A DNA stretch of 64,000 bases, from NCBI RefSeq assembly GCF_003334355.1, contig NZ_QOWP01000013.1. One strand, 5' to 3'. The notes beneath the pieces are model-generated. The model ran no database searches. It saw only the letters and a program-made list of their open reading frames with translations, and had not been told where the DNA came from. The position numbers and the translations under genes were made by a program. Of this stretch, positions 49,883 to 49,907 are shown one piece after another (position 1 is the first letter of the stretch; every line of letters starts with the position of its first letter). This DNA is from Escherichia coli (lineage in GTDB: Bacteria > Pseudomonadota > Gammaproteobacteria > Enterobacterales > Enterobacteriaceae).

Positions 49883-49907
49883 TTGCCGGATGGCACGCAT
49901 CCGGCAA
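49883..49907. terminator. bidirectional hairpin between convergent yceI and trhO
   Basis: ttgccggatg-gcacg-catccggcaa 10-bp palindrome (REP-half-like); no strong U-tract. Confidence 0.45.

Follow-up and report, generated by a model that had tools for sequence, protein, structure and literature searches.

The REP and BIME elements of Escherichia coli were reportedly described by Stern in 1984, and REPs are classic stabilisers of mRNA 3' ends. Three types of REP occur in E. coli (y, z1 and z2, with lengths of 35, 29 and 37 nt, respectively); they are imperfect palindromes that follow GTAG and contain a conserved AA-GC mismatch bulge, and for the REP transposase, TnpA(REP), GTAG must be intact, with activity lost once the bulge is made perfect (Corneloup et al. 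2021, PMC8266576). Stem-loops at gene ends have also been described as protective structures: beyond the gene, Rho ends transcription at diffuse positions, PNPase and RNase II then degrade the RNA as far as the first stable stem-loop, and a U-less stem-loop consequently stands just before a precise 3' end, with Rho read-through downstream (Dar & Sorek 2018, PMC6061677). Only 24% of this protective class is annotated as REPs, and REP-like sequence is thus incidental to the class. Two further systems bear on stem-loops in such positions. Overlapping bidirectional terminators (Ju et al. 2019; bioRxiv 10.1101/2022.10.23.513370) are reported to act independently of Rho; they consist of a single stem-loop in a short convergent spacer, do not look like intrinsic terminators and can set the 3' ends of both strands. 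REPs located 15 nt or less after a stop codon are described as lowering translation, a 16-nt rule attributed to Liang, Rudd & Deutscher (2015) that, as summarised in PMC12306157, takes in 446 such hairpins of MG1655.

The window analysed here, the whole stretch of 64,000 nt of E. coli DNA, is not from K-12 itself; its positions 17772-55773 correspond, in reverse orientation, to MG1655 1112000-1150000, with an identity of 99.3% in the alignment, a match that allows the MG1655 annotation to be transferred to the window. A first-pass annotation of this DNA had pointed to three palindromes built on the REP half-site at 3' gene junctions, and an exact search bears this out. The pattern GCCGGATG N(1-25) CATCCGGC has exactly three matches in the window (21770-21796, 49885-49905 and 52121-52147), against a mean of 0.01 expected from dinucleotide shuffles, and since none of the 100 shuffles reaches three matches, a chance origin of the palindromes is ruled out. 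The window contains seven copies of GCCGGATG and three of CATCCGGC, with every copy of the latter serving as the palindrome partner at one of the three sites. The positions in that annotation correspond to the exact cores plus 0-2 flanking bases, and its gene names are correct by alignment to MG1655. The features to which we refer are as follows:

49883..49907 (exact core 49885-49905): hairpin 1 (site 1), TTGCCGGATG-GCACG-CATCCGGCAA, in the convergent yceI/trhO spacer
21770..21796: hairpin 2 (site 2), GCCGGATG-TGGTTACGTCG-CATCCGGC, in the convergent yceF/rluC spacer
52119..52149 (exact core 52121-52147): hairpin 3 (site 3), ATGCCGGATGC-TTCAGAA-TGGCATCCGGCAT, in the lpxL-mdtG spacer, where the genes are co-directional
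49297..49872, + strand: yceI coding sequence, stop codon at 49870-49872
49914..50966, - strand: trhO (yceA) coding sequence, stop codon at 49914-49916
51191..52111, + strand: lpxL coding sequence, stop codon at 52109-52111, with mdtG (+) next
21177..21761, + strand: yceF coding sequence, stop codon at 21759-21761
21873..22832, - strand: rluC coding sequence, facing yceF
21811..21841, + strand: near-canonical REP beside hairpin 2, GCCTGATGCGGCGTAAACGCCTTATCAGGCC and then AAC in place of TAC
52196..52228, + strand: distal hairpin of the lpxL-mdtG spacer, GCGCCC-N10-GGGCGC followed by a T-rich tail, with a terminator-like scan match at 52212-52232

All three hairpins lie close to stop codons, with stop-to-stem spacers of 10 nt for yceI, 6 nt for trhO, 8 nt for yceF and 7 nt for lpxL. 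Between yceI and trhO, the spacer is only 41 bp long and is filled by hairpin 1; the yceF/rluC spacer measures 111 bp, with the REP following 14 nt beyond hairpin 2. Predicted folding energies for the six strand readings range from -15.5 to -22.0 kcal/mol, with z scores of -1.9 to -4.8 against shuffles (hairpin 1, -19.6 kcal/mol on the + strand and -17.5 on the - strand; hairpin 2, -22.0 on + and -15.5 on -; hairpin 3, -21.7, z -4.8). The loci are present in 5,419-5,423 of 5,426 complete E. coli genomes, a near-universal presence that marks them as fixed features of the core genome rather than polymorphic insertions, and the hairpin cores are unchanged among the divergent E. coli genomes examined. 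No Rfam family matches the three sites, and a full-text literature search with both 8-mers (GCCGGATG and CATCCGGC) returned primer lists only.

To place these hairpins relative to REPs, we used a sample of MG1655 made up of eleven evenly spaced 50-kb segments (550 kb, unbiased) together with the 38 kb that match the window, for a total of 588 kb. Perfect GCCGGATG...CATCCGGC hairpins occur six times in this sample, of which three fall in the unbiased 550 kb, and extrapolation from those three gives ~25 copies per genome, with a wide error, versus several hundred REPs. The hairpins and the REPs have the same stem base, (T)GCCGGATG(C) / (G)CATCCGGC(A), and are alike in their intergenic location at gene ends; the 8-mer is exact in both arms at all three sites, and at least one arm reaches GCCGGATGC / GCATCCGGC in all six K-12 copies. 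GTAG/CTAC accompanies every canonical REP of the 588-kb K-12 sample and none of the six perfect hairpins, and the flanks of the three hairpins in the window read ...GTT/AAT..., ...GCG/AAT... and ...CAT/ATT..., with GTAG absent. Whereas a REP is an imperfect palindrome with a bulge, in the hairpins GATG pairs perfectly with CATC to give stems of 8-12 uninterrupted pairs, the AA-GC bulge is absent, and no K-12 copy is bulged (0/6). The cores measure 21, 27 and 27 nt, compared with 29-37 nt for REPs, and their interiors are unrelated to one another and devoid of the REP upper stem (CGGCG...CGCC and relatives). Under the strict definition, the three hairpins are not REPs. The broad definition of RepRanger, which takes in any U-less intergenic palindrome, would give them that name, as a matter of naming convention rather than as a test.

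The REP half-site basis of the stems, proposed from the letters alone in the first-pass annotation, extends to orthology at one of the sites. At site 2, an inverted consensus y REP, GCCGGATAAGGCGTTTACGCCGCATCCGGC, is present in E. fergusonii and in a second record, followed by the same spacer as in E. coli, AATCG(A/G)TG, and by a second REP; the right arm and the spacer match E. coli hairpin 2 base for base. In an E. coli B2 strain, the same site reads GCCGGATGCGG-TTACGT-CGCATCCGGC, which is the REP with AA changed to GC, so that the former bulge now pairs. At site 3, the element of a divergent Escherichia lineage (L002) reads GCCGGAT-AA-GATGC-GTA-GCATC-GC-ATCCGGC, the architecture of a bulged REP, where E. 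coli has GCCGGATGC...GCATCCGGC. Comparison of these orthologous sequences indicates that the hairpins probably descend from y-type REPs, with orthology at site 2 and a suggestive resemblance at site 3; from one or two outgroup lineages per site and a consensus argument, we infer that the change would have run from REP to perfect hairpin. The stem base of site 1, TGCCGGAT/ATCCGGCA, is common to Citrobacter and Salmonella, and because the loci are also present in nearly all E. coli genomes, a recent mobile insertion is ruled out. With the loss of GTAG and of the AA-GC bulge, both of which the REP transposase needs, the hairpins are likely to be fixed, immobile relics.

The same annotation had held that none of the three palindromes has a clear U-tract on either strand and that canonical intrinsic terminators were the less likely reading. 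As a measure of the tail we used a TransTermHP-style score, the score with which RepRanger also parts terminators from other palindromes. At sites 2 and 3, tail scores on either strand lie between -1.5 and -2.25, close to the window background of -2.08, and bona fide terminators nearby (rne, dinI, opgH and yceB) score -4.9 to -5.9; a canonical intrinsic terminator is thereby ruled out at these two sites. Site 1 is marginal, with scores of -2.9 to -3.0 on the + strand and, depending on the assumed stem end, -2.3 to -3.6 on the - strand, and a simple terminator scan flags it alone among the three, on the + strand, with the tail ATATTTATTC. The absence of a clear U-tract thus holds for sites 2 and 3 and is only approximate at site 1, and the tail scores indicate that none of the three hairpins is a canonical intrinsic terminator. 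The hairpins share with intrinsic terminators a GC-rich stem-loop at the gene end (-15.5 to -22.0 kcal/mol) but differ in that the U-tract of 7-8 nt right after the stem is missing, or marginal in the case of site 1, and in that transcripts read through. Given marginal T-rich tails on both strands and its place between convergent genes, site 1 could support partial intrinsic, bidirectional or collision-type termination, which could likewise give rise to the trhO end described below.

Published maps of mRNA 3' ends show which transcripts stop at these hairpins and which continue. The termini are from the TRS study, in which MG1655 was profiled by RNAtag-seq and Term-seq (PMC10687069, Supplementary Data 3), and thus represent one dataset family. 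In this list, trhO ends at MG1655 1117895 (+), approximately window 49877 (-), 6 nt past hairpin 1 (...CAUCCGGCAACAUUUC / ...GCCGGAUGCGUGCCAUCCGGCAACAUUUC), and rluC ends at MG1655 1146009, approximately window 21762 (-), 7 nt past hairpin 2 (...CAUCCGGCGCAAAAAA), at an A-tract with no U. The yceF end is located at MG1655 1145923 (approximately window 21850), just past the extended stem of the adjacent REP, and hairpin 2 is therefore internal to the yceF mRNA. On the lpxL strand, the end maps to MG1655 1115546 (approximately window 52228), at the distal hairpin ~80 nt downstream of hairpin 3. The TRS list contains no terminus at hairpin 3 and none for yceI (PMC10687069), and the curated Term-seq ends of Adams 2021 include none at any of the three hairpins; for yceI, none of the datasets consulted gives a mapped end. 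At site 1, the mapped end, 6 nt past the hairpin, belongs to the trhO strand only; at site 2, which the first-pass annotation had placed after yceF, the mapped end is instead that of rluC, encoded on the other strand, and the yceF mRNA continues through the hairpin to end after the REP; and hairpin 3 is refuted as the 3' end of lpxL.

We find the same mixture of outcomes in the wider sample, where nine ends of adjacent genes are mapped near the six MG1655 hairpins. Five of the nine (trhO, rluC, can, hpt and ybaK) lie 6-11 nt past a hairpin, and at hpt/can the ends of both strands fall 6-8 nt past a single stem. The remaining four (yceF, lpxL, ushA and cnoX) map to more downstream positions, three of them at a second stable predicted hairpin and that of ushA at a more distal, weakly structured site; the ybaK end lies directly beyond its hairpin, and the ushA and cnoX transcripts pass theirs to reach distal ends. 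These four ends show that polymerase reads through hairpins of this kind, and the extension of the yceF, lpxL, ushA and cnoX transcripts beyond the hairpin speaks against efficient intrinsic termination. A mirror-type hairpin, GCCGGATACG...CGTATCCGGC, caps ygdG.

Next to each of the three sites there are bicyclomycin-sensitive regions, which are listed in Adams 2021 (Supplementary file 2) at MG1655 1117985(+), which is trhO read-through into antisense yceI; at 1115548(-), in the lpxL-mdtG spacer; at 1145524(-), which is yceF read-through into antisense rluC; and at 1145841(+); their Rho scores are 4.2-5.4. Three of the four regions lie at or beyond the mapped ends, and the region at 1145841(+), at the rluC end, peaks inside rluC, with all of these positions being coarse as a result of 800-nt windows and low read counts (~30-140). 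To account for these data, we propose that RNA polymerase would largely pass through the hairpins and that, with the ribosome released at the stop codon, Rho would act on the untranslated RNA and end transcription at a distance of tens to hundreds of nucleotides, after which 3'-to-5' exonucleases would trim it back to the first stable stem-loop that they meet. Where the GCCGGATG hairpin is the most distal one on its strand, it would set the steady-state 3' end and protect the mRNA, as with the trhO mRNA at site 1 and the rluC mRNA at site 2; if a second hairpin stands further downstream, that one would form the cap and leave the GCCGGATG hairpin inside the 3' UTR, as with the yceF mRNA at site 2 and the lpxL mRNA at site 3. 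Ends that lie either 6-11 nt past a hairpin or at more distal sites fit trimming from a downstream stop.

We consider it likely that these REP-derived perfect hairpins act as exonuclease barriers, or 3'-end markers, for Rho-terminated transcripts, with the set of genes served being determined by strand and by distal hairpins. In support of this explanation we have observed the sequence and folding of the hairpins, their U-tail scores, the REP orthology of site 2 and the conservation of a hairpin, and the 3' ends and bicyclomycin sensitivity are published data. By analogy with the protective class, we infer that exonuclease trimming would take place at these particular loci. The trhO and rluC ends resemble that class (Dar & Sorek 2018, PMC6061677) in having a U-less stem-loop just before a precise 3' end and Rho read-through downstream, whereas hairpin 3 differs in that no 3' end is mapped there. 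The first-pass suggestion of mRNA 3'-end stabilisers or Rho-associated structures was therefore right about the class, with ends 6-7 nt past hairpins 1 and 2 and bicyclomycin-sensitive regions adjoining, but wrong about the gene or strand at site 2 and about a 3' end at site 3.

Conservation across Enterobacterales was assessed from 80 trhO loci, with the E. albertii locus (L004) left out because yceI is absent downstream of trhO. The automatic hairpin picker mis-called a few species (e.g. L010 and L015), and only summary trends were used from it, with stems read directly. The yceI/trhO spacer is typically 31-63 bp long, and among the species in which it measures 20-100 bp, it folds at -12 kcal/mol or below in 50 of 50, with z of -2 or below in 49 of 50; likewise, in 76 of 76 species the stretch of 60 nt that follows lpxL contains a hairpin and reaches -12 kcal/mol or below. 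According to the automatic picker, the median stop-to-stem distance at the yceI/trhO junction is 6-7 nt across species, and 44 of 51 species have a strong T tail in neither direction. The stem itself varies from one genus to another, with GCCGGATG in Escherichia, GCCGGATGA in Citrobacter, GCCGGATAGCG in Salmonella arizonae, GCCCGGC in Enterobacter and GGAGAGGG in Kosakonia. Two compensatory pairs are found at site 1 among Escherichia, Citrobacter and Salmonella, one from G-C to A-U and one from A-U to G-C. After lpxL, the GCCGGATG type is confined to Escherichia, and a canonical REP occupies that position in some species. In some lineages, the orthologous hairpin is instead a true terminator with A-tract, stem and T-tract, as in Siccibacter at the yceI/trhO junction and in Kosakonia after lpxL. 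Across these species, it is the structure that is selected at the yceI/trhO and lpxL junctions, with the sequence being replaceable and a REP arm having served as raw material in Escherichia.

If the hairpins themselves paused or released polymerase, through marginal U-tails or through convergent collision, then the mapped ends would result from termination and not from trimming. We regard this reading of the hairpins as weak bidirectional terminators as unlikely, despite the setting in which they occur: five of the six MG1655 hairpins, and all three of those in the unbiased 550 kb, lie in convergent spacers of 36-111 bp, when only ~5 of 42 local junctions are convergent. Sites 1 and 2 likewise have a single stem-loop in a short convergent spacer, the tail scores of site 1 reach -3.0 and -3.6 and the scan flags that site, and U-poor terminators that depend on a stem-loop are reported to be described in Ju et al. 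2019 and in bioRxiv 10.1101/2022.10.23.513370. The ends on both strands that flank one hairpin at hpt/can have the form expected of such a terminator, whereas at sites 1 and 2 the end of one strand is mapped. The class is described as Rho-independent, yet bicyclomycin-sensitive read-through is reported downstream of trhO, yceF, rluC and lpxL; moreover, four of the nine adjacent-gene transcripts continue past the hairpin and end further away, a U-tail is missing from sites 2 and 3, and the genes around site 3 are co-directional. Bidirectional, possibly collision-driven termination is nevertheless plausible as a contribution at the convergent sites. A role in translation, in which a hairpin less than 16 nt after the stop codon would hinder the terminating ribosome and lower the output of the upstream gene via tmRNA-linked events, seems quite improbable to us. 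The spacers of 6-10 nt for yceI, trhO, yceF and lpxL place all four genes within the positional rule attributed to Liang 2015, as summarised in PMC12306157, and such a role could give hairpin 3 a function despite the lack of a mapped end there; however, a 40-bp convergent spacer also forces short spacing, which hence need not be selected.

The lack of features for REP mobility, the lack of a mapped 3' end at hairpin 3, and the presence of REP-type elements that fill the yceF-rluC spacer in several genera in differing arrangements would all be expected if the hairpins were neutral REP debris, without a function of their own and located at gene ends because REPs insert and are tolerated there. 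This seems very improbable when a strong hairpin has been kept at two junctions in 50/50 and 76/76 species despite sequence replacement, when compensatory changes are present and no core varies among the divergent E. coli genomes compared, and when five of the nine mapped 3' ends coincide with the hairpins. As for action at the level of DNA, whether as REP-type sites bound by gyrase, Pol I or IHF or as TnpA(REP) substrates, the shared stem base and the BIME-like pairing of site 2 with a REP 14 nt away are compatible with it, but TnpA(REP) needs both GTAG and the bulge (PMC8266576) and the hairpins have neither. A DNA function of the TnpA(REP) type is unlikely on this sequence evidence, and we find the DNA-level explanation as a whole scarcely credible. 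Protection of Rho-terminated transcripts from exonucleases remains our preferred explanation.

The origin of the hairpins suggests one further idea, which we would entertain without expecting it to prove correct. The GCCGGATG...CATCCGGC hairpins and their mirror form, GCCGGATA...TATCCGGC, may constitute a distinct subclass, namely y-type REPs in which the bulge has been "perfected" and which have been frozen and kept preferentially in convergent spacers of ~40 bp, where they would cap the mRNAs of both strands. Template-switch (quasipalindrome) correction could perfect the bulge toward either arm, giving GATG/CATC or GATA/TATC, and a perfected bulge would abolish recognition by the REP transposase and so freeze the element in place. 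Both predicted mirror forms are found, and at two of the three sites a sister lineage carries a bulged REP-type element exactly where E. coli pairs GC/GC; the z-type perfect form (GCCTGATG...CATCAGGC) was not seen in 614 kb. The perfected bulge, suggested by two loci, may be the one mildly new thread in these data. If the idea is true, it would provide a simple path from a selfish repeat to a fixed gene-end architecture.

Elements of this kind have already been described, and their mapped 3' ends are already in public tables. The hairpins are ordinary members of a published class of gene-end structures, and the finding has little consequence beyond bookkeeping. Its lessons concern annotation. 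The steady-state end of an mRNA tends to coincide with the last stable hairpin ahead of the Rho stop, and a hairpin located right after a stop codon therefore need not be the end of that mRNA. A REP-like stem alone does not make a mobile REP, and a hairpin in a convergent spacer needs data for its assignment to a strand; here, the ends are those of trhO and rluC.

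Three more exact GCCGGATG...CATCCGGC hairpins, of the kind found in the window after yceF, yceI and lpxL, were located in MG1655, and all three are housed in short convergent spacers. Perfect hairpins of a mirror type, which use the other arm of the REP (GCCGGATA...TATCCGGC), were also found, and two of these three lie between convergent genes (ygdG/fucO and cdh/tpiA). The z-type counterpart, GCCTGATG...CATCAGGC, was not seen in the window or in the K-12 sample of MG1655 segments.

Perfect hairpins elsewhere in MG1655 (fetched loci L082 and L083 for the first type, L089 and L092 for the mirror type)
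141978-141998, exact hairpin, hpt/can
506576-506595, exact hairpin, ushA/ybaK
517369-517394, exact hairpin, fetB/cnoX
2931817-2931846, mirror type, with the ygdG mRNA end mapped 8 nt beyond it
2937426-2937449, mirror type
4110710-4110728, mirror type

The perfect hairpin at the end of yceF is adjoined by a REP, beyond which the published map (PMC10687069) immediately places the yceF mRNA 3' end. The CTAC of this REP is mutated, and its outer stem is extended (GGCGG...CCGCC). In E. fergusonii this REP, the second there, is truncated and the first intact, which is the reverse of the situation in E. coli. The long imperfect hairpin at 12759-12826 (about -30 kcal/mol) is not a canonical REP, and the REPs of the two-REP BIME downstream of opgH are separated by a spacer matching ES036 (CssrF sRNA; Rfam, above the gathering score). 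The matches to SraB, the rne 5' UTR and the pyrC leader, likewise above the Rfam gathering score, are expected for this E. coli region.

Elements in the window
12759-12826, long imperfect hairpin TTTTTGCCGGATGCGCAGC...GCACCCGGCGGCAAA, starting with the half-site GCCGGATGCG
21015-21183, SraB sRNA, overlapping the yceF start region
21806-21850, REP beside the yceF hairpin, with GGCCAAC where GGCCTAC is expected
23044-23380, rne 5' UTR element
45113-45162, pyrC leader
52196-52232, second hairpin of the lpxL-mdtG spacer, GCGCCC-N10-GGGCGC with a T-rich tail
54259-54357, two-REP BIME 3' of opgH
54259-54290, its y REP
54293-54335, ES036 match
54330-54357, its z1 REP, inverted

Across the Enterobacterales loci, the yceI-trhO spacer is about 40 bp in most genera but has grown to about 146-205 bp, with extra hairpins, in L049, L050, L067, L069 and L078 (Cedecea, Mixta, Pantoea and Serratia). 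The locus is rearranged in Escherichia albertii NBRC 107761 (L004); yceI was not found within 5 kb, and past trhO (at 1189) lies AT-rich sequence that bears no relation to the spacer of E. coli. In a single genome, E. coli WS0115A (NZ_CP035882.1, match H1), an IS1A copy breaks the region, which matches in two pieces with yceI annotated twice.

At the second hairpin of the lpxL-mdtG spacer falls a published 3' terminus, MG1655 1115546, labelled as mdtG 5' UTR, together with a Rho-score peak at 1115548 (bicyclomycin data, Adams 2021). This hairpin may be the true end of the lpxL mRNA, or it may be an attenuator ahead of mdtG.
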